DNA of 64,000 nucleotides from Dehalococcoidia bacterium (GTDB lineage: Bacteria; Chloroflexota; Dehalococcoidia; SHYB01): NCBI GenBank assembly GCA_963666265.2, contig CAXXHW010000006.1, forward strand, positions 572,999 through 636,998, read 5' to 3'. Each line of letters opens with the position of its first letter. Position 1 is the stretch's first letter. Shown in pieces: positions 4,391-51,170 of the stretch. Both the position numbers and the translations under genes were made by a program. The notes under the pieces are model-generated. The model was given only the letters and a program-made list of their open reading frames with translations. It did not search any database and was not told where the DNA came from.

Positions 4391-5161
4391 TCATTTCGCT
4401 CTCCAATCATAGCGCTCTGGGTCGTCGATGGTCTGGTATGGCCCGGCCAAGACCACCTCCATCGATTGGCTCGCGTCGTATGCTCGACCGGCGGCCCTCC
4501 ACTCAGCCTGCTTCTTCGGCAGGTCCGCCATCATCTCCAAAGGGTCCTCATCTAAATAATACAGAAAGACCCAGCGCTGTTCCGGATGGCCCGGCCCGGA
4601 GCTCGGAGCCCGCTCCCTGGTCCAGCTCTCAAACCAGTAGCAGCCGGTAACCCCCTTTACGGTGAGGACGTCCGGCACATGGACCTGGTCATGCCACTGG
4701 GCCAGCTCTTGCCGTTTGCTCAAGTCCAGCAGGTCTTTCATGACCACAAACACACCACGATGAGGCCTGAATGGGACCGCCTCGGGAGATATCGGAAGCC
4801 TGGGCGCGACGTAGGCCTTGAGCAGGTTATAGTGACCGGATGCGTGAATCGTACGAGGCTCGAAGTACCGCCCCAAAGACCTGGTGCGACCGGAAAGCTC
4901 AGCGAACTGCTGGAAGGCCTCTTCCAGGGGCTCGGTCATGAGGTAGTGGATGAGGTATTGGGAGGTGGCGAAGGACGGATGGACCGCCAGCCGCGCATCC
5001 ATATAGCGCTGCGGAGCGGCCCACCGTGCGGCGAGAATCACGCCGTCCAGGGCAAGATTCTCGGGTATGTGATCGCTGCTGTGAAACCAGTTATACTCGG
5101 CGTGCCCCTCGGGGTCGTCGACTTCGGCGACAGCGAAGAAGCCCGACTTGATCTTGTTCAT
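4391..5161 (-). CDS. Hypothetical protein with two tandem ferredoxin-like (EthD/Dabb-like) halves
   Basis: Two internally similar halves (EYNWFHSSDHIPENL... and LAQWHDQVHVPDVL...). I chose the start at MNKIKSG (RBS GGAGAGG). The track ORF extends to 5431, but that extension looks like a shadow of a + strand small ORF. Confidence 0.55.
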   Translation of the reverse strand: MNKIKSGFFAVAEVDDPEGHAEYNWFHSSDHIPENLALDGVILAARWAAPQRYMDARLAVHPSFATSQYLIHYLMTEPLEEAFQQFAELSGRTRSLGRYFEPRTIHASGHYNLLKAYVAPRLPISPEAVPFRPHRGVFVVMKDLLDLSKRQELAQWHDQVHVPDVLTVKGVTGCYWFESWTRERAPSSGPGHPEQRWVFLYYLDEDPLEMMADLPKKQAEWRAAGRAYDASQSMEVVLAGPYQTIDDPERYDWRAK

Positions 5162-5260
5162 CCTCTCCCCATGGCGATCCTCAGCGGTCTCGCCACCCAT
5201 GGTAGCACGCCGGGACCGGGACTTGCGCCTGCCGCGTGGGCAGGCTAGCATGATAGGATC

Positions 5261-5398
5261 ATGGTCAGGGACTACCCCATGACCCCTAGAGACACTGCGC
5301 AGCCGGTATGCGACCTCTGCGGCAGCCCGCTGCAGGAGATCCAGTGTAAGCTGCGCTGCTTCAACTGCGGCTACACCCGAGATTGCTCCGATCCGTAG
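5261..5398 (+). CDS. Candidate small zinc-ribbon protein (45 aa, two CxxC pairs)
   Basis: MVRDYPMTPRDTAQPVCDLCGSPLQEIQCKLRCFNCGYTRDCSDP, ending in TAG. GC3 is high like the flanking genes. It is shorter than the 60 aa ORF-track cutoff. An alternative ATG lies at 5279. Confidence 0.4.
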   Translation: MVRDYPMTPRDTAQPVCDLCGSPLQEIQCKLRCFNCGYTRDCSDP

Positions 5399-5505
5399 CC
5401 CGGTGACGGTACTATCCGTCACGCCGGACACGTCGGCCTAAAGCCGAATCGCCGTTTGCGTGGCCTGTGGGAAGAGACATACCCTCGCTGAGAAAGGGGC
5501 CCGCC

Positions 5506-11175: not shown

Positions 11176-12321
11176 ATGAAGTTCGGATTGCTCTACGAAT
11201 TAGAGATGCCCAAGCCCTGGGACCCCAAAAAGGAACGCGAGATTTTTCACGAGGCCCTGGAGCAGATCGTCCTGGCGGAGGAGATGGGCTTCGAATACGT
11301 CTGGATGGTGGAGCATCACTTCCTCACTGAGTTTGCCCACTCCTCGGCCCCTGAGGTCTTCCTGGGCGCCCTGACCCAGCGGACCTCAAAGATGCGCTTG
11401 GGTCATGGTGTGGTGCTGCTGCCGGTGAACCACCCTATTCGCGTCGCGGAGTATGTCGCCACCCTGGACATCATGAGCAACGGTCGGGTCGAGTTCGGCA
11501 CGGGGCGCTCCGGCACTCCCTACCAGCTCACCCCCTTCGGCACGGAGCTCAAGGACACGCGGCCCATGTGGGAGGAGGCCCTGGATATCATCCCCCGCAT
11601 GTGGACGGAGGAGGTCTTCTCCCACCAGGGGACGTACTACAACATCGCCCCACGGGAGATCATCCCCAAGCCGGTACAGGACCCCCATCCCCCCATCTGG
11701 GTCGCCGCCTCCCAAGTGGAAACCTTCAAGATGGCGGGTGAGAAGGGGATCGGCGCCCTGTGCTTCACCCTGGGAGAACCCGGCGCTCTGGGGCAACGGG
11801 TACAGACCTACAGGGAGGGCATCGCCAATGCCAAGCCGGTGGGCAAGTTCATCAACAACCATATCGGCGCCTTTACCGTGGCCTACTGCGATGAGAACGA
11901 CAAAAAGGGCAGGGAGATCGCGTCTGAGGCCGGGGCATGGTACATCGGCACCGCCCGGACACGCTACTCCAACGAATGGGCAGGCGTGGAGCCGGGCTCG
12001 GTCCCCGAGGACTACAAGTACCACAATCCCTATAGCGCAGACGGGGGTCAGTTAGCGGGACAGCTGGAGGCGCCGCAGCAGATGGACCCCGGGGCGCTTC
12101 TGGACAACGGCACCTTCTGCGGCGGCAACCCCGACGCCTGCATCCGGACGACGGAGCTCTACGAAGAGCAGGGCGTAGACCAATTCCTCCCCCTGTTCCA
12201 GGCAGGACGGATACCTCATGAAAAGATCATGAGCTCCATCCGCTTGTTCGGAAAGTATGTCATCCCGCACTTCCGCGAGAAGGACCGGAAGGCGAAGGCC
12301 GCGACGGCTGCCAGGGGTTAG
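11176..12321 (+). CDS. LLM-class (luciferase-like) flavin/F420-dependent oxidoreductase
   Basis: MKFGLLYELEMPKPW..., EEMGFEYVWMVEHHF, GRVEFGTGRS. It is a close paralog of 37779..38888. Confidence 0.9.
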   Translation: MKFGLLYELEMPKPWDPKKEREIFHEALEQIVLAEEMGFEYVWMVEHHFLTEFAHSSAPEVFLGALTQRTSKMRLGHGVVLLPVNHPIRVAEYVATLDIMSNGRVEFGTGRSGTPYQLTPFGTELKDTRPMWEEALDIIPRMWTEEVFSHQGTYYNIAPREIIPKPVQDPHPPIWVAASQVETFKMAGEKGIGALCFTLGEPGALGQRVQTYREGIANAKPVGKFINNHIGAFTVAYCDENDKKGREIASEAGAWYIGTARTRYSNEWAGVEPGSVPEDYKYHNPYSADGGQLAGQLEAPQQMDPGALLDNGTFCGGNPDACIRTTELYEEQGVDQFLPLFQAGRIPHEKIMSSIRLFGKYVIPHFREKDRKAKAATAARG

Positions 12322-12865: not shown

Positions 12866-12923
12866 GGGCAGCCCCTTGGCCTTCCGGCACGACTCCATGG
12901 CACAACGCTGAAGGGAGTTGAGG

Positions 12924-14162
12924 ATGGACTTCGAATACCGACCAAATTATACCCCGGAGCTTGAAGATTTCAGGAAAGAGGTCAGGACCTGGATGGAAGG
13001 GAATATTCCTCCGGAGATCAAGGCCCCTGTGGACTCCGAGGATATGCCAGACGATCTCTACGAGTTTGGGGTCCAGCTGCGCATCAAGCTTGCTGAAAAA
13101 AAGAACTGGCTTTACCCATCCTATTCCAAGCAATACGGAGGTGGCGGCCTCACCCCGCAGCATGGGGCTATCATCTGGGAGGAGCTGCGAAGACGCAACC
13201 CACCCACGATTTTCAGCAATGATCTTATCCTCCCCTCGATTCTCGTTTGGGGTACTGAAGAGCAGAAGCAGAAATTCCTTCCAGGGATCTTCTCCGGGAA
13301 GATCATATGTTTCCAGAACTTCACGGAGCCCCAGGGGGGCTCGGACCTTGCCAACATCAAGTGCCGAGCGGTGCGGGATGGCGATGATTGGATCATCAAC
13401 GGTGAGAAGACCTTCGTCAGCGGCGGTGGCCCTGGACGAGCCGACCTCCTGTTCGGCCCCATGATGACTGATCCGGAGGCCCCTCGGCACCACAACCTGG
13501 GCTATTTCCTTGTTCCCGCCAAGACCCCAGGGGTGACGCTCATCCCTCTCAACCTGCTGAACGGCCGTAATCAGCACACGGTGATCATGGATAACGTCCG
13601 CGTTCCGCACGACCACCTGATAGGTGATGATCACCAGGGTTGGCAGGTGGCTCAGACAGTGTTGGAGGCGGAGCACGGCGGCCGGGGCCAATCGGCGCCA
13701 TTCAACGAAAGCGCGAATGATTTCTACCACTTTGTTCGCTCAACACAGACTAACGGCAATGTCCTCGGGAAGGACCCCCTCGTCCAGGAACGCGTCGTCG
13801 ATTTCTACATTGAGAGCCACCTCAACGCGCTGCTTGGCATGCGAAACTATTCGATGTATAACAACAAACAGGAGATGTCCTACGAGGGCTCGCAGACTGT
13901 CGTGCTTCGGAAGGAAACGAGCGTACGTAACGCCGATAGGGTCCGGGATGTGATGGGCCCTTACGCTCTTCTCAAGCACGGGGACCCTCGTGCGCCATTC
14001 CAGGGCAAACCGGAGATTCAGCAGCGCAACAGCCTGGTGGCCCTTCATCCAGGTGGCACTCTCGAGGTCCAAAAGGTCATCATCGCCAGGCGTCTCGGGC
14101 TCAGCCGGACCCAAGAACGGGCAGCGCCAACGCCCGCTACGGCCGCAGGCATCACTGCATAA
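12924..14162 (+). CDS. Acyl-CoA dehydrogenase family protein
   Basis: ACAD N-terminal, middle and C-terminal domains (FTEPQGGSDLANI, WIINGEKTFVSGG). RBS GAAGGGAG lies 6 nt before the ATG at 12924. Confidence 0.9.
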   Translation: MDFEYRPNYTPELEDFRKEVRTWMEGNIPPEIKAPVDSEDMPDDLYEFGVQLRIKLAEKKNWLYPSYSKQYGGGGLTPQHGAIIWEELRRRNPPTIFSNDLILPSILVWGTEEQKQKFLPGIFSGKIICFQNFTEPQGGSDLANIKCRAVRDGDDWIINGEKTFVSGGGPGRADLLFGPMMTDPEAPRHHNLGYFLVPAKTPGVTLIPLNLLNGRNQHTVIMDNVRVPHDHLIGDDHQGWQVAQTVLEAEHGGRGQSAPFNESANDFYHFVRSTQTNGNVLGKDPLVQERVVDFYIESHLNALLGMRNYSMYNNKQEMSYEGSQTVVLRKETSVRNADRVRDVMGPYALLKHGDPRAPFQGKPEIQQRNSLVALHPGGTLEVQKVIIARRLGLSRTQERAAPTPATAAGITA

Positions 14163-14780: not shown

Positions 14781-15944
14781 ATGGACCTGAGCCTCAGCGA
14801 AGAACAGACTATGCTCCAGACCTTGGCGGTCAACTTCCTGAAGAGTGAGGTGCCCAAGGAGCGGGTGCTGGAGATCGACGAGAGCCCGAACGGTTTCTCA
14901 GAAGAGCTCTGGCGACAGATGGTCCGCATGGAATGGACGGGGATGGCCATTCCCGAGGAGTTCGGTGGGACAGGGAACTCGTGGACCGATCTCGGGGTCA
15001 TCTACGAGGCCCTCGGCGAGGCCTGTTGCCCCAGCCCGCACCTCTCCACGGTCCTCTGTTCCCAGGTGATTCTGGAGACCGGCGCCGCGGCACAACATAA
15101 GGACCTCCTCTCTTCCATCGCGAAGACAGGACACGTGCTTTCCTTTTGCTACACCGAGCCGGAGTACGGATGGGAACCCGAACACATTCGTCTCTCAGCC
15201 AACCGCAGCAATGGCGACTACGTCCTGAACGGGACGAAGCTGTTCGTCGCCGATGCCAATATCGCCGACCAGTTGCTCGTCGTCGCCAGGACCTCCTCCC
15301 AAGGGTCTCCCGAGAACGGCATCAGCGTTTTCCTGGTCGACCGCAAGGCATCGGGTGTTTCCGTTCGACGCCATGTTGGTTGGATGAGTGAAAACCTCTC
15401 CGAAATCGAGCTGTCGAACGTCTCTGTTCCGGCCTCCGCCGTTATCGGCGAAGTTGGAGGCGCCTGGGGAGCCATAGAGCGCGCCCGCGACCGAGCCACT
15501 GCCGTTCTTTCACTCTATATGGCCGGGGGTGCTCGGCGTGTTATGGACATGGCCATCGAGTACAGCAAATCCCGGATTTTGTACGGGGTCCCGATCGGCA
15601 CCTTCCAGCGAGTGCAGGACCACGTCATCCTTGGGGTCAACCATGCTGACGCTATAAAATGGTCCGCCTACGAGGCCCTCTGGAAGCTGGATGAAGGAAA
15701 GTCCGATGCCCCGGTGAGCGTTTCGATGGCGAAGGCGGCGGCCAGCGTGGGGTTCCCCCAGGCGTGTGAGGAATCTCACCACGTGCACGCAGGGGTCGGG
15801 ACCGATTTCGCCTACGGCCTGGTCCAGTACACCAAGAAGGCCCGGACCCTTCAGCATTACCTGGGCGACGCGATCTATCACAAGAAGCGCATGGCCAGTC
15901 TCTTGCAGCTCGACCAGCCACCCGAGGAGTCTCCAAGCGGGTGA
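14781..15944 (+). CDS. Acyl-CoA dehydrogenase family protein
   Basis: MDLSLSEEQ..., TEPEYGW, YVLNGTKLFV, and a C-terminal HHVHAGVGTDFAYGL. Confidence 0.9.
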   Translation: MDLSLSEEQTMLQTLAVNFLKSEVPKERVLEIDESPNGFSEELWRQMVRMEWTGMAIPEEFGGTGNSWTDLGVIYEALGEACCPSPHLSTVLCSQVILETGAAAQHKDLLSSIAKTGHVLSFCYTEPEYGWEPEHIRLSANRSNGDYVLNGTKLFVADANIADQLLVVARTSSQGSPENGISVFLVDRKASGVSVRRHVGWMSENLSEIELSNVSVPASAVIGEVGGAWGAIERARDRATAVLSLYMAGGARRVMDMAIEYSKSRILYGVPIGTFQRVQDHVILGVNHADAIKWSAYEALWKLDEGKSDAPVSVSMAKAAASVGFPQACEESHHVHAGVGTDFAYGLVQYTKKARTLQHYLGDAIYHKKRMASLLQLDQPPEESPSG

Positions 15945-17386: not shown

Positions 17387-18274
17387 ATGAGCCAGCAGAG
17401 GAAAGTAGCCCTGATTACAGGAGCCAGCCGCGGGATCGGCAGGGGCTGCGCGATCCATCTAGCCAAAAGGGGATTGGACGTGGTCCTGTGCGCTCGCACC
17501 GTGAAAAAAGGGCAGGCCTTCGAGCATTCATCCACGGTCAAAAAGTCAGATACAAGGCCGCTGCCCGGAAGTTTGGAGGAGACGGCGGCGGAGTTGGAGG
17601 CCCATGGGGTGAAGGTCCTATCGATCAAGATGGACCTGCTGGAAAAAGCAGACCTGGAGCAGGCCGTGGAGCAAACGCTCCATGAATTTGGCCGCGTCGA
17701 CGTGCTGGTGAACAACGGACGATACATCGGGCCGGGTCATATGGACCTGCTCATGGACACCCCCATAGACATACTGGAGAAGCATGTCATGGCCAACACC
17801 ATCGCCCCCATCTACCTCACCAAGCTCGTTGTGCCGGCGATGATCGAACAGGGTGGCGGGGTCGTCATCAACCTGACCTCGGGTTCAGGCCAGCACGAGA
17901 CAGCGGCCCTGCCTGGCGAAGGAGGGTGGGGCCTTGGCTACTCGATCAGCAAGGCTGGGTTCAACCGCGCAGGGCCCGGGATGGCCAAGGAGCTCCGCCA
18001 GCACAATATCTCGATCATCAACCTGGAGCCGGGCTTCGTGGCGACTGAGCGCATGGCCTTCGATATGGGGGCTTTCGGCTTTGACGTCAACGCAGGGCTC
18101 AGCGTCGATGTCCCAGGGGCGGTCTGTGCCTTTCTGGCTACCTGTCCGCACCCTATGTTCTTCTCCGGCAAGCAGGTGGATGCCCCGGAATTCGCCGTCG
18201 CCCACGGTTTGGTAGACCCGGCGACGTTGCCGCGTTCTCATGCGCCGAGCAATTGGGGTCTTCCCAGAGGTTAG
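17387..18274 (+). CDS. SDR family oxidoreductase
   Basis: ALITGASRGIGRG glycine motif, NNGRY, YSISKAG catalytic YxxxK. RBS GGGGGAG. Confidence 0.9.
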   Translation: MSQQRKVALITGASRGIGRGCAIHLAKRGLDVVLCARTVKKGQAFEHSSTVKKSDTRPLPGSLEETAAELEAHGVKVLSIKMDLLEKADLEQAVEQTLHEFGRVDVLVNNGRYIGPGHMDLLMDTPIDILEKHVMANTIAPIYLTKLVVPAMIEQGGGVVINLTSGSGQHETAALPGEGGWGLGYSISKAGFNRAGPGMAKELRQHNISIINLEPGFVATERMAFDMGAFGFDVNAGLSVDVPGAVCAFLATCPHPMFFSGKQVDAPEFAVAHGLVDPATLPRSHAPSNWGLPRG

Positions 18275-18311
18275 CACGACCACAGCCTCAAAGGTGGTCC
18301 AGGAGGGCTTG

Positions 18312-19322
18312 ATGAACTTCTGCATAGGGATGCCGTTTCACATGTTCATTCGAGACGCGCGGCAAGGGAAACCAGAGACCATCGCCACCGTCGTCCGCGA
18401 GGTGGAGGATATGGGTTACTGGGGTCTTACCGTCTCCCATCACATTTCCGACCCGGGCCTATCGGCGATGGGGCACGCGGGCGGCGAGCTCGTTAACTGG
18501 CGCTACGGGGACCCGATCTCCATGCTGAGCTACCTTGCCGCCGTTTCCAGGACAGCCAAGCTTATTCCGTGGGTCATGGTCCTGCCCTATAGGAAACCAG
18601 TCGATCTGGCCCACAGCCTGGCCTCCATCGACTCCCTTTCGGGCGGACGGCTGGTCTTTGGAGCGGGGGTCGGGGCCAGAGAGAGTGAGTTCCAGCTCCT
18701 TGGAGTCCCACGGGAGGAGCGGGGCAAAATGGCTGACGAATGGCTGGACATCATCATTGAGCTGTGGACCAACCCAAAGGCTACATACTCGGGCCGTTAC
18801 TACAGCTTCGAAAACGTGAACCTCACCGTGCGACCCGTCCAGCAACCCCGGCCGCCGATTTGGATAGGCGGCGGAACTCGGGCAGCCCTCCGCCGAGCCA
18901 TAAGGGTGGGCGATGTCTGGGCGCCGACCGCGTTCAGTTTTCCGCCGGAAGAAGGGGTCCCCCGCCCTGTGGTTACCGGGACCCGTCTTCGAGGCGCTGT
19001 CACGGCGGGCGATGTCAAGGAAGAGCTGGCCTGGGCCAACGAGCAGCGCAAGGCCCTCGGCAAGCCCCCCCTGGAATGTGCGGCGGGCGCGGGTATTCCC
19101 CTGACGTTCTTAGATAAGCCTCAGAAGGGACCTCCCCGCTCCCGCAAGGATGTCACCTATTTCACCTCCCGGGGTACGCCAGATGAGCTTTTGGAGGAGT
19201 TCGCCGCTTTCAAGGAGGCCGGCGTCACTAACTTCTCTGTCAAGTTCACCGGCGACACGCCAGAGGACTACCTCCGAGACGCGGAAACTTTTGCCACCCG
19301 TATCATGCCCGCATTGGGCTAG
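18312..19322 (+). CDS. LLM-class F420/flavin-dependent oxidoreductase
   Basis: GYWGLTVSHH, GGRLVFGAGVG, RPPIWIGG. The start is at MNFCIGMP with RBS CAGGAGGG. The track start at 18240 overlaps the upstream SDR. Confidence 0.85.
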   Translation: MNFCIGMPFHMFIRDARQGKPETIATVVREVEDMGYWGLTVSHHISDPGLSAMGHAGGELVNWRYGDPISMLSYLAAVSRTAKLIPWVMVLPYRKPVDLAHSLASIDSLSGGRLVFGAGVGARESEFQLLGVPREERGKMADEWLDIIIELWTNPKATYSGRYYSFENVNLTVRPVQQPRPPIWIGGGTRAALRRAIRVGDVWAPTAFSFPPEEGVPRPVVTGTRLRGAVTAGDVKEELAWANEQRKALGKPPLECAAGAGIPLTFLDKPQKGPPRSRKDVTYFTSRGTPDELLEEFAAFKEAGVTNFSVKFTGDTPEDYLRDAETFATRIMPALG

Positions 19323-21410: not shown

Positions 21411-21477
21411 CACTGGACCAAGATTCCTCACCGGCTCTCATCATGTAAGTCAAGACATGGGGCCGGTTGAGCGCTAC

Positions 21478-21522
21478 GAAACAATAAGGGGGCTGTCACG
21501 GTGACAGCCCCCTTATTGTTTC
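21478..21522. terminator. Bidirectional hairpin terminator between convergent genes
   Basis: Perfect 22-bp stem GAAACAATAAGGGGGCTGTCAC / GTGACAGCCCCCTTATTGTTTC around a single central nucleotide, with an A-tract on the left and a T-tract on the right. Confidence 0.7.
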
Positions 21523-21557
21523 GTAACGTTTGTATGTCGACTATACGTGCGCGTTCT

Positions 21558-26341: not shown

Positions 26342-27085
26342 TTACAGCACGCCTTCTTGTGGCATCACCACGATCTCATCGACCGCCGCCGTCGATGAGA
26401 TCGTCAGGGTGGCTACCACGGACTCGGCCACATCTTCGGGCCGCAGCATCTTGGCCCTGTCCGGAGTCCACTCCATCGGGTCCCAGAGTGGCGTGTCCAC
26501 CGACCCCGGTGACACGGTAATAACCCTGAGCCCTTGTTTTCGCACCTCCAAGGCCAAGGCCCGAGAGAAGCCGAGAACCCCATGCTTGGCTGCACAATAT
26601 GCCGTCGAGTTCTCGAACCCTTGATGAGCGGCTATCGAAGCGATATTGACGATGTCTCCCCTGCCCCTCTCGAGCATATGCGGTACCACTTGCCTGCAGC
26701 AGAGGAAGACCCCCTTGAGGTTCGAGTCCACCACCTGGTCCCACTGCTCCAAGGCGGTCTCCCCAATCGGAGTAAAGTACACGGACCCGGCGCTGTTCAC
26801 CAGGATGTCTACGCCTCCGAACGCGCTCACCGCGCTCTGGACTGCGCGACGGACTGGCTCCTCCTGCGCTACATCCGCGGGGGCGATCAGAGGCTTCTCA
26901 CCATCGTTGCGCAGGTCGTCGGCGATGGCTCGAAGCTTGTCCTCCGAGCGCGCTACCAAGCAGAGCTTGACCCCCTCCTGTGCAAGCCGTCTCGCGATCG
27001 CCAGGCCGATGCCGCTGGAGGCCCCGGTTACGATACAGGCTTTACCTTTAAGGGACAGCACGGCCCTCTTCCTTTTCTCCGGCAT
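26342..27085 (-). CDS. SDR family oxidoreductase (candidate sepiapterin/pterin reductase by context)
   Basis: CIVTGASSGIGLAIA, NSAG, YCAAKHG. The maximal ORF overlaps the PTPS stop by 38 nt. An alternative GTG at 27061 is preceded by AAGGAAGAGG and would overlap by 14 nt. Confidence 0.9.
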   Translation of the reverse strand: MPEKRKRAVLSLKGKACIVTGASSGIGLAIARRLAQEGVKLCLVARSEDKLRAIADDLRNDGEKPLIAPADVAQEEPVRRAVQSAVSAFGGVDILVNSAGSVYFTPIGETALEQWDQVVDSNLKGVFLCCRQVVPHMLERGRGDIVNIASIAAHQGFENSTAYCAAKHGVLGFSRALALEVRKQGLRVITVSPGSVDTPLWDPMEWTPDRAKMLRPEDVAESVVATLTISSTAAVDEIVVMPQEGVL

Positions 27086-31402: not shown

Positions 31403-32536
31403 GTGGACCTGGGACTGAGCGAAGAACAGGAGATGATCAAGACCACCTCACGGGACTTTCTTGACAAAGAATGCCCCAAGAGCCTGGTGAGGGCGATAGA
31501 GGAGGACGAGAAAGGTTACTCCCCAGAGCTTTGGAAAAAGATGGCGGCCCTGGGCTGGATGGGTCTGGTCTTCGAAGAGAAATACGGAGGCACTGAGAAC
31601 AGCTTCACGGACCTGTGCGTCCTTATCGAGGAGCAGGGAAGAGCCCTGCTGCCAGGCCCCTTTTTCTCAACCATCGTCCTCTGCGGAATTCCCATTGCCG
31701 AGTTTGGGACCGAAGCGCAGAAGGAAGAGCATCTCCCCAGTATCGCCGATGGCAACCGCATCATGGCCTTCGCCCAGACAGAGCCCACCGCCACGTGGGA
31801 AGCCTCCGGAGTGGAACTTAAAGCTACAGCTCAAGGCGACAGCTACACCCTAAACGGCACCAAGCTGTTCATCACTTCGGCCCATATTGCGGATTACCTT
31901 TTGGTCGTGGCCAGAACGAAGGACGGGGGGAAACCGGAAGATGGCATTACGTTGTTCCTCGTCGACGGCAAGAGCGCCGGAATTAGCTACGAGCCGCTGA
32001 AGACGATAGCGACTGACCACCAGAGCGAGGTGGTGTTCAAGGATGTCAAAATCCCCGCTGCAAATATCCTGGGCAAGGCCAACGAAGGCTGGAAGATCGT
32101 GGAGCGAATCGACGCCCTGGGAGCGGCGGGCAAATGCGCCGAGATGGTGGGCGGAGCTCAGCGTGTGCTGGAGATGAGCGTGGACTACGCCAAGCAACGC
32201 GTGCAGTTCGGGCGGCCCATCGGCAGCTTCCAGGCCATTCAGCACCACTGCGCCAACATGGTGACGGACGTGGACGGCTCCCGCTACATAACTTTCGAGG
32301 CGATCTGGCGAATCAGCGAAGGGTTGGATTCGGCCAAGGAAGTCTCCATGGCCAAGGCATGGACCAGCGATGCCTACCGGCGAGTCTGTGCCCTGGGCCA
32401 CCAGATCCATGGCGGCATCGGCTTCACGAAAGAGCATGACATGCAGCTCTATTATCGCCGGGCCAAAGCCGCGGAGCTGGCCTTCGGCGATGGAGACTAC
32501 CATCGAGAGCTTGTAGCCCAGCAGCTGGGATTCTAA
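31403..32536 (+). CDS. Acyl-CoA dehydrogenase family protein
   Basis: GTG start after AGGAGG. MDLGLSEEQEMIK, QTEPTATW, YTLNGTKLFIT, HQIHGGIGFTKEHDMQLYYRRAK. Confidence 0.9.
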   Translation: MDLGLSEEQEMIKTTSRDFLDKECPKSLVRAIEEDEKGYSPELWKKMAALGWMGLVFEEKYGGTENSFTDLCVLIEEQGRALLPGPFFSTIVLCGIPIAEFGTEAQKEEHLPSIADGNRIMAFAQTEPTATWEASGVELKATAQGDSYTLNGTKLFITSAHIADYLLVVARTKDGGKPEDGITLFLVDGKSAGISYEPLKTIATDHQSEVVFKDVKIPAANILGKANEGWKIVERIDALGAAGKCAEMVGGAQRVLEMSVDYAKQRVQFGRPIGSFQAIQHHCANMVTDVDGSRYITFEAIWRISEGLDSAKEVSMAKAWTSDAYRRVCALGHQIHGGIGFTKEHDMQLYYRRAKAAELAFGDGDYHRELVAQQLGF

Positions 32537-35429: not shown

Positions 35430-35482
35430 GAGAGGCATGAAGAAACGCGCCCTGGAATAGGGCGCGTTTCTTCATGCCTCTC
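35430..35482 (+). terminator. Long perfect hairpin after the ABM-like gene
   Basis: 24-bp stem GAGAGGCATGAAGAAACGCGCCCT / AGGGCGCGTTTCTTCATGCCTCTC with a 5-nt loop. There is no U-tract. Confidence 0.55.
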
Positions 35483-36664: not shown

Positions 36665-37591
36665 ATGAAAGTGCGCATAGGCACCGGGTTCATCGGTTGG
36701 CCCTTTCCCAAGGTTGAGGCCAGCTACGCCTGGGAGTTCATCGACATGTCCGAGGATCTCGGGCTGGATTCCATCTGGCTGGCAGACCGGATCGTGTCCA
36801 ACGCAATCAGCCTGGAGTCGATGACCTTCATGGCCGCCCTTGCCGCCAGGACCAAGCGGATGAAATTCGGCAACAGCGTCCTGGCCCTGCCGCTGCGCAA
36901 CCCTGTTGTCCTGGCCAAAGAGATCGCCACCGTGGATTTCTTGTCCGGTGGCCGCATGCTGCCGGCCGTCGGGCTGGGCACGGACAACCCCAACGAGTAC
37001 GAGGCCTGCGGTATAGAGATGAAGCAGCGCGGACCCCGCACCGACGAGGCCATCGATCTCATGCGGCGGCTGTGGACGGAGGATAACGTCACCTTCAAGG
37101 GCAGGTTCTACCAGACCACGGAGGCGACGGTCACGCCCAAACCGGTCCAGCAGCCACCGCCTATCTGGATCGGCGGCCGGACGGAGGCCGCTTACCGCAG
37201 GGTGGGGCGCGTGGGCGACGGGTGGCTCACCTCGTTCCTGGACCCGCAGGAGGTCGGCCATGGGATACAGCGCATCCGGGAGTATGCCACGGAGGCGGGC
37301 CGCTCCGTCGACGATGACCACTACGGCATCATCATCAATTATTGCTTTGCGGACAGCACCGAAGAGGCTTACAAGCTGGCGCAGCCCTACCTCTTGCGGC
37401 TACGCACCGACATTCCGCCCGAGTCCTATTGCGGCCTGGGAACGGCCGAGGATATCGCGCGGGTGGTCAGGGACTACGTCACCCACGGAGCATCGAAGTT
37501 CGTGCTCAGGGCCACCTGCCCGCCGGAGATGACCCTAGCCCAGAACGAGCGCCTCGCCCGTGAAGTGGCGCCTTTGTTTCACGGGGGCTAG
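36665..37591 (+). CDS. LLM-class F420/flavin-dependent oxidoreductase
   Basis: LGLDSIWLADR, GGRMLPAVGLG, PPPIWIGGRTEAAYRR. RBS GGGAGGGAG. Confidence 0.85.
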   Translation: MKVRIGTGFIGWPFPKVEASYAWEFIDMSEDLGLDSIWLADRIVSNAISLESMTFMAALAARTKRMKFGNSVLALPLRNPVVLAKEIATVDFLSGGRMLPAVGLGTDNPNEYEACGIEMKQRGPRTDEAIDLMRRLWTEDNVTFKGRFYQTTEATVTPKPVQQPPPIWIGGRTEAAYRRVGRVGDGWLTSFLDPQEVGHGIQRIREYATEAGRSVDDDHYGIIINYCFADSTEEAYKLAQPYLLRLRTDIPPESYCGLGTAEDIARVVRDYVTHGASKFVLRATCPPEMTLAQNERLAREVAPLFHGG

Positions 37592-37778: not shown

Positions 37779-38888
37779 TTACGCCTTCACCGAAGCCCTG
37801 TCGCGCCGCTTGAACTCCGGCAGGACGTACTTCCCAAAGAGCCGGATCGATTCCATGATCTTTTCATGGGGGAGCTTCCCGGCCTGCATGATGAGGACGA
37901 CCTGCTCCGGGTCCACCGCCGCATACTTTTCGATGGTGCGGATGCATGCGTCCGGGTCCCCCATGCAAAAGGTGCCGTCATCGATCAAGGGGGTGTGGTC
38001 GGCCTTCTTGAGCTCTTCCAACCGACGGCGTACCCGGGCATGGTACTGGTACGAGTCCGGAACGCTGTCCAGGCCCTCCCATGACTTGCTGAAGATTTCG
38101 GAGATCGTCTCGCGGTACCACAGGGCTTCGGGGCCACCGATGGCGCGGGCCTCGGCATCCCGCTCCGCGCAGAAGGCGAAGGAGAAGACGGCGATCCGAT
38201 TACTGACCTGAGCCCCCACCGGCGATGCCTGTTTGAGACCCTCTCGGTAGACCCTCGCGTAGTCGATCAGCCTATCCGGGCCGGTAACGGTCATGAAGAG
38301 GGCTCCAATGCCCCTCTTGCCGGCCAGCGCCGCCGTCTCCTGCTGGGTGCACGCCACCCACATGGGAGGGTGCGGCTTCTGGATCGGTTTGGGGATGACG
38401 TTCCGCAGTGGAAGATCGTAATAGCGCCCATGGTGCTCGAAAGCATCCTGCGTCCACATCTTCGGGATGATCTCGATCGCCTCTTCCCACATCGGGCGGG
38501 TGTCCTCCAGAGCGACACCGAAGGGCGAGAGCTGGTATGGCGTAGAGGAGCGTCCGGTCCCAAACTCGACACGCCCGCCGCTCAGGACATCGAGGGTGGC
38601 GACTCGCTCGGCGACGCGCAGCGGGTGGTTCATGGGGCTGGAGGTGAGGACAACGCCGTAGCCCAGCCGCATGGTGGAGGTGCGCTCGGCCATGGCCGCC
38701 AGCAACAGGTCCGACGCGGCGGCGTGAGAGACCTCTTCCAGGAAATGATGCTCCGCGACCCAGGTATAGTCGAAGCCCTCTTGCTCCGCCAGCGCCGTCT
38801 GATCGATGGCCTGCCGGTAGATGTCGTATTCGCTCCGCGCATGCCAGGGCCTCGGTACTTGAAGCTGAAAGAACAGTCCGAATTTCAC
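37779..38888 (-). CDS. LLM-class flavin/F420-dependent oxidoreductase
   Basis: GTG start after AGGAG. MKFGLFFQLQVPRPW, QEGFDYTWVAEHHF, GRVEFGTGRS. Paralog of 11176..12321. Confidence 0.9.
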   Translation of the reverse strand: MKFGLFFQLQVPRPWHARSEYDIYRQAIDQTALAEQEGFDYTWVAEHHFLEEVSHAAASDLLLAAMAERTSTMRLGYGVVLTSSPMNHPLRVAERVATLDVLSGGRVEFGTGRSSTPYQLSPFGVALEDTRPMWEEAIEIIPKMWTQDAFEHHGRYYDLPLRNVIPKPIQKPHPPMWVACTQQETAALAGKRGIGALFMTVTGPDRLIDYARVYREGLKQASPVGAQVSNRIAVFSFAFCAERDAEARAIGGPEALWYRETISEIFSKSWEGLDSVPDSYQYHARVRRRLEELKKADHTPLIDDGTFCMGDPDACIRTIEKYAAVDPEQVVLIMQAGKLPHEKIMESIRLFGKYVLPEFKRRDRASVKA

Positions 38889-42563: not shown

Positions 42564-43562
42564 ATGGTTTCCATGGTGCAGGATCGTAAATATTTCGACG
42601 TGTTGATCCTGGGGCAGGGCGCTGCCGCTTTCGGAGCAGCCCTCTATGCAGCCCGTTATAGGGTTTCTACGGCCATGTTCGGCGGACTCTTCGGGGGCGA
42701 AACGGCCGTCGGGGGTGTCATCGAAAACTACCCCGGCGCCCCGCAGATCGATGGCTACGATCTCATGTTGAAAATGAAGGAGCAGGTGGACGCCCTGGAG
42801 GTACCCATCATTCAGCAGAACGTGACGGAGCTACGACACCAGAGCGACTGCTGGGAAGTGCTCGCCGGTGACGAGTGGTATCAGGGGTCTGCCGTCATCC
42901 TGGCCGTAGGGCGTGAGCGGCGGAAGCTCGGCATCCCCAGAGAGGATGAGCTGGTGGGCAAGGGCGTCTCTTATTGCTCCACCTGCGACGCCCCCCTGTA
43001 CCGCGACAAACGCGCCGTCGTCGTCGGAGGTGGGGACTCCGCTGTTAAAGGGGCGCTGCTCCTGGCCAAATACGCTAGCCACGTCTTCATCGTTTACCGA
43101 GGCGAAAAGTTCGTTCGACCGGAGCCCATTGCCGTCGACCAGGTTGAAACAACCCCCAACATCGAGGCCCTTTTCAACGCTCAGGTGATTGAACTGCGCG
43201 GCGAGGGCAGCCTCTCCGAGGTCGGGGTCCAGTACCACGACGGCGGAAATCGCCCTCTGCAGGTAGACGGCATCTTCATTGAGATCGGAGCCGACCCAAA
43301 CAGCCAAATGGCCCAATCCCAGGGCGCGGCCGTGAACGACCAGGACGAGATCGTCGTAGACAAGGGAATGCGGACGACGGTGGAAGGCCTGTTCGCCGCC
43401 GGCGACATCACCGACGCCTCAGGAGAGCTCAAACAGACCATCACCGCCGCGGCGCAAGGGGCGATCGCAGCCACCTCCGCTTACGAGTTCGTCTCCACCC
43501 ACCCGAATCGGTGCGCTATCCACGCCACAGGATACACTCTGGACGAACAGCCGCCGGCATGA
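42564..43562 (+). CDS. trxB: Thioredoxin-disulfide reductase-like FAD-dependent oxidoreductase
   Basis: GQGAAAFGAALYAAR, IENYPG, redox-active CSTCD, VVGGGDSA, FAAGDITD. Confidence 0.85.
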   Translation: MVSMVQDRKYFDVLILGQGAAAFGAALYAARYRVSTAMFGGLFGGETAVGGVIENYPGAPQIDGYDLMLKMKEQVDALEVPIIQQNVTELRHQSDCWEVLAGDEWYQGSAVILAVGRERRKLGIPREDELVGKGVSYCSTCDAPLYRDKRAVVVGGGDSAVKGALLLAKYASHVFIVYRGEKFVRPEPIAVDQVETTPNIEALFNAQVIELRGEGSLSEVGVQYHDGGNRPLQVDGIFIEIGADPNSQMAQSQGAAVNDQDEIVVDKGMRTTVEGLFAAGDITDASGELKQTITAAAQGAIAATSAYEFVSTHPNRCAIHATGYTLDEQPPA

Positions 43563-46092: not shown

Positions 46093-47013
46093 ATGAGCGG
46101 AGATCCAAAGCCGATAAGCCTGAAGGAGCTGGATGACCTCTTCGAGCAGGTCAACAACTGGGGCCGTTGGGGCGAAGGCGATGAGCGGGGCGCGTTGAAC
46201 TTGATAACGCCGGAGAAACGGCGCAAAGCGAGCGCTCTCATGCAGGACGGAGACGTGGTCAGCGCCGCCCTTCCCCTGGCGACGCAGCTTGCCCCGGAGA
46301 ACCCCAGCCCCGTGGGTCATTACATGGTCCGGGCCGGCGACCTGCCTGGGGACAGCTGCGCCGATTATTTCGCCATCGCTCCCCACGGTATGGCCAACAC
46401 CCACCTGGATGCCCTTTGCCACTATTTCTACCACGGCAAGATGTACAACGGCGTCCCGGCCTCTAAAGTTACCTCCAGGGGTGCGGAGGCCAACTCTATC
46501 GAGGTCGCCCTGGACCGAATGGTCGGAAGGGGCGTGCTGCTGGATGTGGCCAGGGCACTGGGGCGAGACTGGCTGGAGCCCGGCGAGGCGATCTACATCG
46601 AAGACCTCGAAAAGGCGGAGGCGGCGCAAAACGTGCGTGTTGAAGAGGGTGACATCTTGCTGGTCCGCACGGGCCGCTTCCGCCGTCGGGCGCAGCTGGG
46701 AGGATGGAGTCCCACCTCCGGGCTGGCCGGGATGCATGGCACGTGCATGCCCTGGCTGCACAGCCGTGGGGTGGCGGCGCTGGGATGCGACGGCGTCAGC
46801 GACGTTATCCCTTCAGGCGTTGAAGGCGGCGGGGTGCCCATTCACACCGTGGCGATCCCCGGCATGGGGCTGCACCTGATCGACAACTGCGACCTGGAGC
46901 CCCTGGCCAAAGCATGCGAGGAGAAGGCCCGATGGGAGTTCCTGTTCGTTGTCGCGCCGTTGAAGCTGGTCAAGGGTACCGCCTCACCGGTGAACCCCCT
47001 CGCCATGTTCTAA
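46093..47013 (+). CDS. Cyclase family protein (kynurenine-formamidase-like fold), copy 1
   Basis: NWGRWGEGDERGALNLIT, PHGMANTHLDALCHYFY, LLVRTGR. RBS AAAAGGAG. Confidence 0.85.
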   Translation: MSGDPKPISLKELDDLFEQVNNWGRWGEGDERGALNLITPEKRRKASALMQDGDVVSAALPLATQLAPENPSPVGHYMVRAGDLPGDSCADYFAIAPHGMANTHLDALCHYFYHGKMYNGVPASKVTSRGAEANSIEVALDRMVGRGVLLDVARALGRDWLEPGEAIYIEDLEKAEAAQNVRVEEGDILLVRTGRFRRRAQLGGWSPTSGLAGMHGTCMPWLHSRGVAALGCDGVSDVIPSGVEGGGVPIHTVAIPGMGLHLIDNCDLEPLAKACEEKARWEFLFVVAPLKLVKGTASPVNPLAMF

Positions 47014-47042: not shown

Positions 47043-47966
47043 ATGAGCCCACAGCCGAAGCCGATGACGTTGGACGAGTTTCACGTGATATTCGAACAGG
47101 TCAAGAACTGGGGCCGCTGGGGCGCCGATGACCAGCACGGCACCCTGAATCTCATCACGCCGGAGAAGCGGCGCCAGGCCGCCAGCCTGGTCCAGGAGGG
47201 TGTTACCGTCAGCGCAGCCCTGCCGCTGGCGACGGAGCCTGGTCCATGGAATCACGCCCCCGTCGTCCACCTGATGGTGCAAGCCGGCGACATGGAGGAG
47301 GCCCATAGCTCCTCAGACTACTTCGCCATCGCCCCTCACGGGCTCTTTCATACGCATCTGGACGCCCTTTGCCACTATTTCTACCGACGCGAGATGTACA
47401 ACGGTCGGCCCGCCTCCATGGCTACTTCCAGGGGCGCTACCGTCAACTCCATCGAGACAGCTCAGGACGGGATCGTAAGCAGGGGTGTATTGCTGGATAT
47501 TCCGCGGCTGAAGGGAATCGAATGGCTGGAGCCTCGGGAGGCCATCTACCCGGCTGACCTGGAGGCGGCAGAGGAGGCGGCCAACGTCCGTGTGGAAGAG
47601 GGGGATATTCTCCTGGTGCGTACCGGGCGGCACCGTCGTCTTGAGCATGTGAAAGATTGGGGTCTTATGGATGGGTTGGCGGGCCTGGACGTGTCTTGCG
47701 GCCCCTGGCTGCACCAGCGTGGGGTCGCTGTTCTCGGCTCAGACGGGGTCAGTGATGTCTTTCCTTCCCCCCTGGAAAGCGGCCGGCTTCCGGTGCACCT
47801 CCTCGCCCTCCCCGCCATGGGCATGCTCCTCATAGACAACTGCCAATTCGAGCCCTTGGGTGACGCCTGCGCTCAGCGAGAACGGTGGGAGTTCCTGCTG
47901 ACCATCGCACCCCTCAAACTCCTCCGGGGGACCGCCTCCCCCGTGAACCCCATCGCGGTCTTCTGA
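47043..47966 (+). CDS. Cyclase family protein, copy 2 (tandem paralog)
   Basis: NWGRWGADDQHGTLNLIT, PHGLFHTHLDALCHYFY, LLVRTGR. It is collinear with copy 1 along its whole length. Confidence 0.85.
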   Translation: MSPQPKPMTLDEFHVIFEQVKNWGRWGADDQHGTLNLITPEKRRQAASLVQEGVTVSAALPLATEPGPWNHAPVVHLMVQAGDMEEAHSSSDYFAIAPHGLFHTHLDALCHYFYRREMYNGRPASMATSRGATVNSIETAQDGIVSRGVLLDIPRLKGIEWLEPREAIYPADLEAAEEAANVRVEEGDILLVRTGRHRRLEHVKDWGLMDGLAGLDVSCGPWLHQRGVAVLGSDGVSDVFPSPLESGRLPVHLLALPAMGMLLIDNCQFEPLGDACAQRERWEFLLTIAPLKLLRGTASPVNPIAVF

Positions 47967-48031
47967 TAGGCCATATTCAAATTCAATCACCTACCGATTT
48001 TGGGGCTTATGGAAACGCTTTGCTAGCCATC

Positions 48032-48174
48032 ATTCCTAAATCCCCTCTCCCTTGATGCCCGCCCTGAGCGTAGTCGAAGGGGGAGAGGTCCCGATAAGGA
48101 ATCGGGACTCGCGACAAAGTCGGAGGCTAGGGTGAGGGTGAAAACCAATCTGGCATGTCGATATTTGGAATAGC
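48032..48174 (+). mobile_element. MITE-like single (A-type) copy of the hairpin repeat, flanked by an 11-nt direct repeat
   Basis: TGCTAGCCATC occurs at 48021..48031 and 48175..48185. The element ends are ATTCCTAAAT and ATTTGGAATAGC, an imperfect TIR. The interior is nearly identical to the units at 50581..50688. Confidence 0.6.
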
Positions 48175-48250
48175 TGCTAGCCATCCCTTGCGCCTCCCGT
48201 TATAATCCAACCAGGTACACGAGTTTAGGAGACGAGGAAAGGAGGCTCCC

Positions 48251-48811
48251 ATGGTAGTTGAGGCGACGAAGCCAGTCCTGACAGTCCTCGACCCCACCGC
48301 GCCACCCCTTCCCATCGACGCCCGCATGGCCGGGCGCCCGGAAAGCCTTAACGGCAAGGTGCTTGGATTGCTGGACAATCACAAACGCAACGCATCCGAC
48401 CTGCTGGACAAGGTCCAGGACCTGCTGTCCGAGCGCTACGAGTTCGCCAAAGTGGTACGACGCTCCAAGATGGACGTCAGCCGTCCGTGCCCAGAAGAGA
48501 TCGTGGACGATCTGGCCGCCCAGTGCGACGTGGTGATAACCGCGATAGGAGATTGAGGTTCCTGTTCGTCGAGCAGTTTGCTCGACGGGATCACCTTCGA
48601 GAAGCGTGGGATTCCAGCCGCCGTTCTCTGCACCGAGCCTTTCATTCCCACGGCCAAGAGCATGGCTCGTATCCAGGGCATAGCCGACTACCCCTTCGTC
48701 GCCCTCCCCCATCCCCTGGGAAGGCTGACCGAGGAGCAGGTCGAGGACCGGGCGAAAAAGGCCTTGCCGGAGGTTATCGAGCTACTCCTGGGAAACGGAC
48801 ACTCCTCTTAA
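48251..48811 (+). CDS. UGSC-motif selenoprotein candidate (186 aa; in-frame UGA at 48554..48556 read as Sec)
   Basis: Track ORFs 48251..48556 and 48578..48811 share one frame and are separated only by TGA. The sequence reads ..VVITAIGD-U-GSCSSSSLLDGITFEKRG... The RBS AGGAAAGGAGG before 48251 is strong, while the TTG at 48578 has none. A hairpin starts 11 nt after the UGA. Confidence 0.75.
48567..48587 (+). promoter_or_regulatory. Bacterial SECIS-like stem-loop
   Basis: 9-bp perfect stem CGTCGAGCA / TGCTCGACG with an apical GUU (or AGUUU) loop. The first stem base is 11 nt downstream of the UGA. Confidence 0.55.
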
Positions 48812-48843
48812 CACAGACACCGTCTTAAGAACGGTAACCAGAT

Positions 48844-48875
48844 GAAAGAGGCTGACCATCAGGTCAGCCTCTTTC
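48844..48875. terminator. Bidirectional hairpin terminator between the UGSC gene and comB
   Basis: 14-bp perfect stem GAAAGAGGCTGACC / GGTCAGCCTCTTTC, loop ATCA, followed by TTTCG. The comB stop codon lies inside the stem. Confidence 0.65.
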
Positions 48876-49589
48876 TTTCGCGCGTATCTCCCCATCAATG
48901 AGGCGAGGCACCACGTCCAGCAAACCGACCTGAGCACAATAGGCCAGGTCCGAGCCCAGCCCTATTCGCGCCAGGGCCTGCCCGGAGGCCGACTCCCGCA
49001 GGGCCTGCTCTATCCGCCCTCGGTAACCACGGTAGGCCATGTGGGCCAGATGCGCCTCCGAAGTTAGGGCAGCCTCCCCGCTTTCCAGCAAACCGTCGAC
49101 GAACATGCCGGCGCAGACCACGTCATCCAGCACCGGTGCGTCTTGGCGGCCCGCCGGAGCAAGCAGCACGTCGTGCCCCTCGCCGGCCAGATAGCGCACG
49201 ATGACCGGGAGGTTCAGAAAGGCGCCGGCCAGCGTCTCCCGAGCGTCGCGGCTGGCCTCCAACGCCCTGGTGCCATTGGTGGTGGTGAGCACGACCGTCC
49301 GGCCGGCTACGGCCTCGCGGTGATATTCCTCCGGAGAGTTGCCCAGATCGAATCCGGCTATTTTTAGCCCGCCACGCTCTCCGCCAAGAAGCGGCGCATC
49401 TCCCTTATGGGCCCGCTTGTACGCTCGGGCAGCAGCGATGCTGGCAACCGGCACTACCGTCCGGCAGCCACTGGCGACGGCCTGTGCGATGGTGGATGTG
49501 GCCCGCACTGCGTCGATGACTACCACGGTCCATGCCGATAAATCCCGGCGTTTCAGGGCACGGGTATGTGGTACTACATGCACTCTCAT
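48864..49589 (-). CDS. comB: 2-phosphosulfolactate phosphatase family protein (ComB-like)
   Basis: VVIDAVRATSTI, GGERGGLKIAGFDLGNSP, TTTNGTRAL. The start is at MRVHVV (49589). The track extension to 49751 runs through a repeat hairpin. Confidence 0.85.
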   Translation of the reverse strand: MRVHVVPHTRALKRRDLSAWTVVVIDAVRATSTIAQAVASGCRTVVPVASIAAARAYKRAHKGDAPLLGGERGGLKIAGFDLGNSPEEYHREAVAGRTVVLTTTNGTRALEASRDARETLAGAFLNLPVIVRYLAGEGHDVLLAPAGRQDAPVLDDVVCAGMFVDGLLESGEAALTSEAHLAHMAYRGYRGRIEQALRESASGQALARIGLGSDLAYCAQVGLLDVVPRLIDGEIRAKERG

Positions 49590-49623
49590 GACCGGAGCTA
49601 TCCTACCATGGGTCCCTAGGAGA

Positions 49624-49726
49624 GTCCGCAGATTACGCAGATAGCACAGATGGGGAAGGCAGGGGAGATGAAGAATATCCTCTTCCTTTCCATCCCCCCA
49701 ATCTGCATAATCTGTGCGATCTGCGG
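49624..49726. repeat. Long imperfect palindrome built from 9-nt periodic (G/A)CAGAT units
   Basis: The left arm is tccGCAGATtacGCAGATagcACAGATgggg. The right arm is ccccccaATCTGCataATCTGTgcgATCTGCgga. Together they enclose a second imperfect hairpin. The structure sits in the divergent region between comB and the hydrolase. Confidence 0.5.
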
Positions 49727-49801
49727 ATGGTCCACGGATGGGCTTTGACACCCGCGGCGCCGCGCCGATATAGTTTCTGCCAGCACCGCGGGAGGCTCAC
49801 C

Positions 49802-50569: not shown

Positions 50570-51070
50570 CTATTCCAAAATCCCCTCTCCCTTGATGCCC
50601 GCCCTGAGCGTAGTCGAAGGGGGAGAGGTCCCGATAAGGAATCGGGACTCGCGACAAAGTCGGAGGCTGGGGTGAGGGTGAACAAACGTCCCTTCTCCCT
50701 TGATGGGAAAGGGCTAGGGTGAGGGTGAACAAACGTCCCCTCTCCCTTGATGGGAAAGGGCTAGGGTGAGGGTGAACAAACGTCCCCTCTCCCTTGATGG
50801 GAGAGGGCTAGGGTGAGGGTGAACAAACGTCCCCTCTCCCTTGATGCCCGCCCTGAGCGTAGTCGAAGGGGGGAGAGGTCCCGATAAGGAATCGGGACTC
50901 GCGACAAGTCGGAGGCTAGGGTGAGGGTGAACAAACGTCCCCTCTCCCTTGATGCCCGCCCTGAGCGTAGTCGAAGGGAGGAGAGGTCCCGATAAGGAAT
51001 CGGGACTCGCGACAAAGTCGGAGGCTAGGGTGAGGGTGAAACCAATCTGGCATGTCATTTTTTGGAATAG
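50570..51070 (+). repeat. 501-nt array of six head-to-tail hairpin-repeat units (A 108 nt, B 47 nt, order A-B-B-B-A-A) bounded by 11-bp terminal inverted repeats
   Basis: Units run 50581-50688 (A), 50689-50735, 50736-50782 and 50783-50829 (B), 50830-50937 (A), and 50938-51070 (A plus tail). TIR CTATTCCAAAA is at 50570..50580 and TTTTGGAATAG at 51060..51070. There are no unique spacers. Confidence 0.85.
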
Positions 51071-51121
51071 CTTCTGGCAGGGTGTCCCCTGAAAAGAGCT
51101 CAAGATGTCAACCTGAGCGAA

Positions 51122-51170
51122 GCTTCGGTAGTGTCTCAGTTTGAAATTCAAACTGAGACACTACCGAAGC
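51122..51170. terminator. Perfect 24-bp-stem palindrome between convergent genes
   Basis: GCTTCGGTAGTGTCTCAGTTTGAA-a-TTCAAACTGAGACACTACCGAAGC. It is followed at 51188..51233 by a diverged variant of the hairpin repeat (CCCTTCCTCCTTGAAGGGGGGAAGGTTAGGATGGGGGTGAA). Confidence 0.5.

Follow-up and report, generated by a model that had tools for sequence, protein, structure and literature searches.

In the GOS survey the UGSC-containing protein ranks with the most abundant of the predicted selenoprotein families; it has 255 selenocysteine (Sec) forms against 21 Cys forms, carries a UxxC motif and is commoner in non-marine aquatic samples (PMC2398784). The family appears again in later surveys and reviews (PMC5029168, PMC9312934, PMC13188914), two of which (PMC9312934, PMC13188914) treat it as a computationally predicted selenoprotein of uncharacterised function. 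It has been known in this capacity since 2005-2008, and Sec recoding of such genes is already described. The consensus published for the bacterial SECIS element (PMC13188914) comprises a loop of 3-9 nt, an upper stem of 4-16 bp, a spacing of 16-37 nt between UGA and loop, an MFE of -7.5 kcal/mol or lower, and a loop in which one of the first two bases is G, as a rule with a G or U after it. Among the Chloroflexota, Sec use and Sec genes have been reported in MAGs (PMC13582414).

Here we describe a locus of this kind in a stretch of 64,000 nucleotides (the window) from a Dehalococcoidia-like genome. Very probably, 48251-48811 is a single monocistronic UGSC-family selenoprotein gene in which the UGA at 48554-48556 is recoded as Sec via a hairpin at 48567-48587. 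Judged by its sequence, the gene is an ordinary member of the known family and passed every family test that could be run. The features of the locus are the following.

48178..48206, + strand: sigma-70-like promoter candidate, TAGCCA-17-TATAAT (10/12 consensus matches; weak evidence)
48235..48245, + strand: Shine-Dalgarno sequence AGGAAAGGAGG, 5 nt before the ATG, read directly from the sequence
48251..48811, + strand: complete gene of the UGSC (predicted selenoprotein) family, 186 codons including the putative Sec102, stop TAA at 48809-48811
48554..48556, + strand: in-frame TGA, putative Sec102, leading residue of the U-G-S-C motif (48554-48565), aligned with Cys and conserved
48567..48587, + strand: bSECIS-type hairpin within the coding sequence, 9-bp stem, apical loop GUU at 48576-48578
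48844..48875, no strand assigned: 14-bp perfect hairpin (loop ATCA) with a T-rich tract; the stem was found in a hairpin scan and the tract read from the sequence

A single frame across the TGA

Translation of 48251-48811 (+) gives one frame of 186 sense codons that ends at the TAA and has the TGA at 48554-48556 as its sole internal stop, with flanking residues that read ...VVITAIGD*GSCSSSSLLDGITFEKRG... The two entries of the ORF list, 48251..48556 (101 aa) and 48578..48811 (77 aa), share this frame, and the original prediction of one frame broken solely by a TGA is confirmed. The same prediction placed a strong ribosome binding site at the first ORF only, and this is also what we find. The first ATG is preceded by AGGAAAGGAGG, the counterpart of which in the relative L001 is AAGGAGG, also ahead of its ATG; ahead of the TTG at 48578 that opens the second ORF no comparable purine-rich motif is present. 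The codon orthologous to this TTG is CTG in three relatives (L002, L003 and L007) and ATG in another (L008).

The promoter candidate is the sole one on the + strand within 47900-49000 and overlaps the end of an intergenic repeat element. At the other end, the hairpin at 48844..48875 is likely a bidirectional terminator separating the UGSC gene from a convergent ComB-like gene (48864-49751, -). A simple terminator scan made no call at this hairpin, and L001 has an analogous one 3' of the stop of its UGSC gene. The promoter candidate, the gene's own Shine-Dalgarno sequence, the lack of a ribosome binding site at the second ORF and the 3' hairpin with its T-rich tail, taken together, make the gene look monocistronic. 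As a side observation, the seven full-length Sec-form genes (window, L001, L003, L004, L005, L007 and L008) all stop with TAA or TAG and never with TGA, a codon that ends 28% of the likely window genes; in so small a sample this may be chance.

For profile scoring, the U of the read-through product was replaced by C. The product reached 160.4 bits with the NCBIfam model NF041046, "UGSC family (seleno)protein" (curated cut-off 125, residues 35-179), and 200.7 bits with the Pfam model PF24696, "UGSC family" (cut-off 25, residues 12-180, model positions 2-171 of 172), and both matches run across the TGA position. A database search returned 30 homologues, of which 28 are full-length or nearly so and all 28 have Cys at the TGA column, within a nearly invariant G-D-C-G-S-C block. 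In an alignment of 25 sequences, with the TGA of the window written as Cys, D101, C102, G103, S104 and C105 are invariant. Full-length Cys homologues spanning both halves of the gene, for which the original prediction proposed to look, do exist. Its mention of a UGSC selenoprotein family from marine metagenomes, so named by NCBI, was also correct (PMC2398784); NCBI gives the name "UGSC family (seleno)protein" to the Cys-form members.

The two closest homologues, P0003 (79% identity) and P0021 (65%), stop exactly at "...AIGD". Their DNA has a TGA at the same codon and then the rest of the gene in frame; apart from these two relatives, truncated by the gene caller, we found no homologue that ends at the TGA or starts at the second ORF. 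A profile search of the protein database listed 120 matches, mostly full-length Cys forms, and no additional truncated Sec forms were found among the matches listed. The expected effect on standard gene calling was borne out as well: in the public gene calls the 101-aa product stands alone in three assemblies and is accompanied by the 77-aa product in another (L010), and each of these two products matches PF24696. The public metagenome contigs that carry the gene are as long as 3.39 Mb.

When reference genomes and metagenomes were scanned with the single protein, three genome and three metagenome loci came up, all close relatives. These six further relatives have 62-77% identity and three of them are from Dehalococcoidia MAGs; in all six the TGA is kept and the C-terminal half is intact and conserved. 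All eight closest relatives (L001-L008; 62-79% identity, from Dehalococcoidia MAGs and metagenome contigs) have the TGA at the same codon. Among the seven full-length sequences, the substitutions at codon positions 1/2/3 number 602/378/1081 upstream of the TGA and 287/236/773 downstream, and the third-position excess downstream is marked (chi-square p = 5e-89). Mean pairwise amino acid identity is 0.76 downstream versus 0.66 upstream. Both the third-position excess and the higher identity indicate that the segment downstream of the TGA is translated in this frame. Reassignment of TGA throughout the genome is ruled out, since the codon is the ordinary stop of 17 of the 61 likely genes in the window. 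No other in-frame TGA in the window is accompanied by a Cys-containing redox motif that would make it a selenoprotein candidate.

The hairpin 3' of the UGA

The hairpin, CGUCGAGCA-GUU-UGCUCGACG, has nine Watson-Crick pairs and a loop of 3 nt and folds on its own with -13.5 kcal/mol; a wobble pair (U48566-G48588) could extend the stem. It is separated from the UGA by 10 nt, so that the stem begins at the 11th nt, and the apical loop lies 19 nt from the UGA. The perfect 9-bp stem starting 11 nt after the UGA is thus where the original prediction had placed it, and its resemblance to bacterial SECIS geometry holds against the published consensus (PMC13188914): all the values of loop length (3 nt, GUU), stem (9 bp), loop sequence (G then U), spacing (19 nt) and energy (-13.5 kcal/mol) lie within it. 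For a fold of 42 nt around the hairpin, z is -2.9 and 2 of 200 shuffled sequences fold equally well; for one of 63 nt the value is not significant (z = -1.06). In Rfam no SECIS family matched 48200-48900 at E <= 10, and the spurious hairpin matches fell on the likely terminator alone.

The window contains few such structures: each strand of the 64 kb has 16 distinct perfect hairpins with stems of at least 9 bp, mostly intergenic palindromes, and of 1771 TGA triplets only 6 (0.34%) are followed by one that has a loop G and lies at a spacing within the SECIS limits. The long perfect palindromes of the window have stems of 23-24 bp (21475-21525, 35430-35482 and 51122-51170), plus one of 14 bp (26370-26404). 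At least the first three sit between predicted genes and could be terminators or repeat elements.

A way to assess the hairpin is to follow it through the Sec-form relatives. Of the stem cells in the nine Sec-form sequences, 97.5% are paired, versus 21-43% when the 3' arm is slid, and the loop G followed by U is invariant in 9/9. Two stem cells are broken: L001 has A opposite A, and L008 has U opposite U, with loss of the second pair. Two other pairs vary and remain paired. Specifically, 48573-48581 changes from G-C to G-U in three sequences, and 48572-48582 shows a compensatory change from A-U to U-A in L008, with amino acids altered on both sides (S to C, L to H). The Ser codons of the 5' arm, TCG TCG AGC AGT, are frozen in the nine sequences save in L008, where one TCG has changed synonymously to TCT, at the cost of the second stem pair, and AGC has become TGC with compensation in the stem. 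Along these lines, the minimum of synonymous differences in the whole gene (0.17 versus about 0.5) sits on codons 48566-48586. The hairpin is thus constrained at the level of the RNA. The covariation score was reached by 120 of 500 shuffles of these nine closely related sequences; the weak statistics are explained by the close relationship of the sequences and by the fact that the stem also encodes a conserved peptide. Longer alternative folds are the MFE structures in L001, L005 and L008.

A compliant hairpin is present in 8 of the 9 Sec forms, or 9 of 9 with one mismatch allowed. Its conservation in all eight orthologues, on which the prediction depended, is confirmed; among the Cys forms it is found in only 1 of 6 (Fisher p = 0.011 for 8/9 and 0.002 for 9/9). 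The exception is the Cys form L013 (816-860, homologue P0024), in which TGC stands in the Sec position. Like the window gene it encodes the peptide SSSSLLD, and it preserves the hairpin UCGAGCA-GUU-UGCUCGA at a spacing of 19 nt. Since this Cys form retains almost the same structure, the hairpin alone is not diagnostic. SECIS-like hairpins, either fossil or pre-adapted, have been reported in Cys relatives of other selenoproteins (PMC13582414), and by analogy the hairpin of L013 is probably a fossil SECIS left from a Sec-to-Cys conversion.

Decoding of the UGA

In the reading that we favour, the UGA at 48554-48556 would be decoded as selenocysteine during translation in this Dehalococcoidia-like (Chloroflexota) genome. 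The hairpin at 48567-48587 would display its G-U-N apical loop 19 nt beyond the UGA and, if the standard bacterial mechanism applies, SelB-GTP-Sec-tRNA(Sec) would bind to this loop, be brought to the ribosome by it, compete there with release factor 2 and deliver Sec at the UGA in the A site. In the product, a selenenylsulfide between Sec102 and Cys105 would most likely be the selenol/thiol redox couple. Insertion of Sec, binding of SelB and a redox role are all what we infer. According to the original prediction no selA, selB, selD or tRNA-Sec lies in the window, and our searches agree: SelA, SelB or SelD domains were absent from its 30 ORFs with at least 295 aa, and no tRNA gene was found in it. 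The flanks of the UGSC loci in L003-L005, covered by a tRNA scan only, also gave no tRNA-Sec.

The simplest alternative is that the TGA is a true stop, either because a nonsense mutation has turned a Cys-form UGSC gene into a pseudogene or because there are two separate small genes here. This is what the gene callers output, as 101-aa and 77-aa products that each match PF24696, and it is in agreement with the normal use of TGA as a stop in this genome and with the lack of Sec machinery in the window. Against a true stop stand the same-codon TGA in eight independent relatives at 62-79% identity and the downstream half, the stronger conservation and third-position excess of which are incompatible with untranslated sequence; the second ORF lacks a ribosome binding site and its TTG is CTG in three orthologues. 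Besides, a split right before the invariant, catalytic-looking Cys position would destroy the motif, and we find a true stop next to inconceivable. The UGA might also be recoded to a residue other than Sec, i.e., to Cys via a UCA-anticodon tRNA(Cys) and a SelB-like factor or to Trp by near-cognate read-through, with the hairpin as a generic stimulator. For a few bacteria, tRNAs that recode UGA to Cys along with SelB paralogues have been proposed, and here too the window shows no Sec machinery. Yet a UGA that yields just Cys has no obvious advantage over TGC or TGT, the hairpin with its invariant loop G then U (9/9) fits a consensus that is specific for Sec, the family is among the most abundant predicted Sec families, with the GOS counts of Sec and Cys forms given above (PMC2398784), and Chloroflexota MAGs carry Sec genes (PMC13582414), all of which makes recoding to another residue highly improbable.

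A different question is whether Sec is inserted with the help of this particular hairpin. The stem could be a by-product of coding for S-S-S-S-L-L-D, which is conceivable because Ser and Cys codons are mutually complementary, and the functional SECIS would then be another or a larger structure. The almost identical hairpin of the Cys form L013, which has the same peptide, the shifted palindrome that another Cys form (L014) makes out of the same codon types, the weak covariation statistics and the longer MFE folds in L001, L005 and L008 all speak for this possibility. But Ser has six codons, and TCG-TCG-AGC-AGT is nevertheless frozen while other synonymous sites differ in ~50% of cases; L008 alters the peptide (S to C, L to H) and yet restores the pair as U-A; four of the six Cys forms are without a comparable hairpin; and the case of L013 has parallels in the fossil or pre-adapted hairpins described for Cys relatives of other selenoproteins (PMC13582414). 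We consider a coding by-product very improbable, and Sec insertion directed by the hairpin at 48567-48587 the best explanation of the locus.

Fold, gene neighbours and relation to known systems

The fold of the family was examined with an AlphaFold2 model of the Cys homologue P0004, which is 45% identical to the window protein (pLDDT 90.2, pTM 0.83). The model consists of five beta-alpha units, and in it the (U/C)GSC motif immediately follows strand 3 and forms the N-terminal end of helix 3. The best 50 Foldseek matches in the PDB are weak and fall on domains of three-layer alpha/beta type, namely flavodoxin-like, CheY-like, SIS and catalase C-terminal domains (TM 0.28-0.47, most of them 0.36-0.47), and no thioredoxin-fold protein was found among them. 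A search of PDB sequences with the family profile returned coiled-coil or Rossmann noise only. The UGSC product is thus predicted to be a protein of ~20 kDa with a five-unit beta-alpha fold, Rossmann/flavodoxin-like. The thioredoxin fold that had been proposed is disfavoured by the topology of the P0004 model, five beta-alpha units rather than the beta-alpha-beta-alpha-beta-beta-alpha of Trx.

There is some weak similarity to other Sec proteins. Residues 81-168 match positions 325-407 of the TIGR01917 model with E = 1.8e-4 (a local, sub-threshold match), and GrdB or PrdB models are matched by 5-6 of 25 family members at E <= 0.01. PrdB is listed as UxxC (PMC2398784). Membership in selenoprotein B of the GrdB/PrdB type is rejected by the scores, 20.5, 17 and 14.9 bits against cut-offs of 602, 65 and 300 (TIGR01917, TIGR01918 and TIGR04483, respectively), and a remote homology, as suggested by these profile matches, is a lead, not established.

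The gene neighbourhoods vary. In the window there are two cyclases and the ComB-like gene, in L004 and L005 an ADP-forming acyl-CoA synthetase lies upstream, and in L003 there are a recombinase and a GDPD; no functional clue emerged from the neighbourhood of these four loci. The two window cyclases are tandem paralogues of the PF04199 family (46093-47013 and 47043-47966), directly upstream of the UGSC gene and not shared with L003-L005.

Some Cys-form genes have a recurrent companion. At L015 (1538-2537), L016 (1037-1540) and L018 (886-1206), a conserved gene of ~330-360 aa with the motif GW(S/T)DGLP(V/L)VP lies immediately 3' of the UGSC gene, and in P0124 (residues 186-372) the partner is fused to the UGSC domain. 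No Pfam or NCBIfam family was found for this partner, which probably corresponds to the fusion domain called 'Unknown_1' in the GOS paper, and tblastn gave no copy of it in the window. At another Cys-form locus, L017 (1-486 and 1045-1534), the UGSC gene lies between a thioredoxin-reductase-like flavoprotein (Pyr_redox_2), the end of which is 15 nt upstream of it, and a DUF6282 gene downstream; this arrangement suggests the flavoprotein as a possible redox partner of the UGSC protein. A Pyr_redox_2 ORF is also present in the window (42564-43562), 4.7 kb from the UGSC gene.

The remaining features of the window concern repeats and paralogues. The intergenic repeat just upstream of the UGSC gene (~150 nt, 48032-48181) has a copy with 98% identity 2.5 kb downstream, and there are two more copies with 68-71% identity, after which 40 nt match at 88%. 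The repeat sites downstream of the gene are 50572-50682 and 50821-51078. Between repeat copies lies an array of 47-nt tandem repeats (50618-50846), and a 36-nt repeat core occurs 3 times versus 0 expected. With direct copies on either side, the repeat brackets a block formed by the UGSC, ComB-like and alpha/beta-hydrolase genes. The window is a catabolic gene set rich in paralogues, among them four luciferase-like monooxygenases, three acyl-CoA dehydrogenases, three amidohydrolases and two family-5 solute-binding proteins (examples of paralogue sites are 11176-12321, 18240-19322, 36665-37591 and 37779-38888, and 12918-14162, 14781-15944 and 31403-32536). An ORF of 346 aa (4391-5431, -) has good coding statistics and no Pfam match at E <= 1e-5.

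The immediate consequence of these results is the correction of an annotation error, given that public assemblies hold the UGSC gene as a 101-aa fragment or as two fragments. With the corrected annotation a Dehalococcoidia-like genome would gain a selenoprotein, and its organism would by implication be a user of selenium. The scientific gain is otherwise small, because UGSC has been recognised since the Sargasso/GOS work as an abundant family of predicted selenoproteins and has curated NCBIfam and Pfam models. The flavodoxin/Rossmann-like AlphaFold model of a Cys homologue, as opposed to the proposed thioredoxin fold, is a modest addition. Together with the weak resemblance to GrdB/PrdB and the partner gene that recurs with the Cys forms, the predicted non-thioredoxin fold provides small leads to the function of UGSC. 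A tentative and rather doubtful reading that would join them is that UGSC proteins are stand-alone relatives of the Sec-bearing module of GrdB/PrdB, flavodoxin/Rossmann-like and, in many lineages, working with an uncharacterised partner of ~350 aa (adjacent or fused), instead of the Trx-fold oxidoreductases assumed in the literature, the Dehalococcoidia Sec clade being partner-less. If true, their chemistry would be a reductive cleavage or transfer on a small molecule, not a generic disulfide exchange.

Among the known systems, the hairpin resembles the bacterial SECIS (the bSECISearch consensus and fdhF of E. coli) in being an intracoding stem-loop directly 3' of the UGA, with a 3-nt G-U loop and a 9-bp upper stem. 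The minimal stem-loop of fdhF requires a spacing of 11 nt, to which the 10-nt spacer of the window is close. Unlike that of fdhF, the window hairpin is without a bulged U and without a clear conserved lower stem, and its sequence is unrelated. At the protein level, UGSC shares with the Trx-fold UxxC/CxxU selenoproteins (Trx-like, Prx-like, SelW-like) a U-x-x-C at a strand-to-helix junction, a small and soluble product and the interchange of Sec and Cys. With GrdB/PrdB (TIGR01917, TIGR01918 and TIGR04483) it has in common the UxxC Sec motif, and the weak similarity falls in their C-terminal, Sec-bearing region; it differs from these components of the glycine/betaine/sarcosine/D-proline reductases in length (~180 versus ~430 aa) and in having no grd or prd partner genes nearby. 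Within its own family, several Cys-form members are followed by or fused to the uncharacterised partner domain of ~330-360 aa, which is absent from the window. Nothing fundamental otherwise separates the window gene from the UGSC family (NF041046/PF24696; Zhang and Gladyshev, PMC2398784): its clade consists of Dehalococcoidia-like genomes in which the gene is stand-alone, and it shares with the family the invariant (U/C)GSC position, the length of ~180 aa, the existence of Cys-form homologues and the origin from environmental samples.
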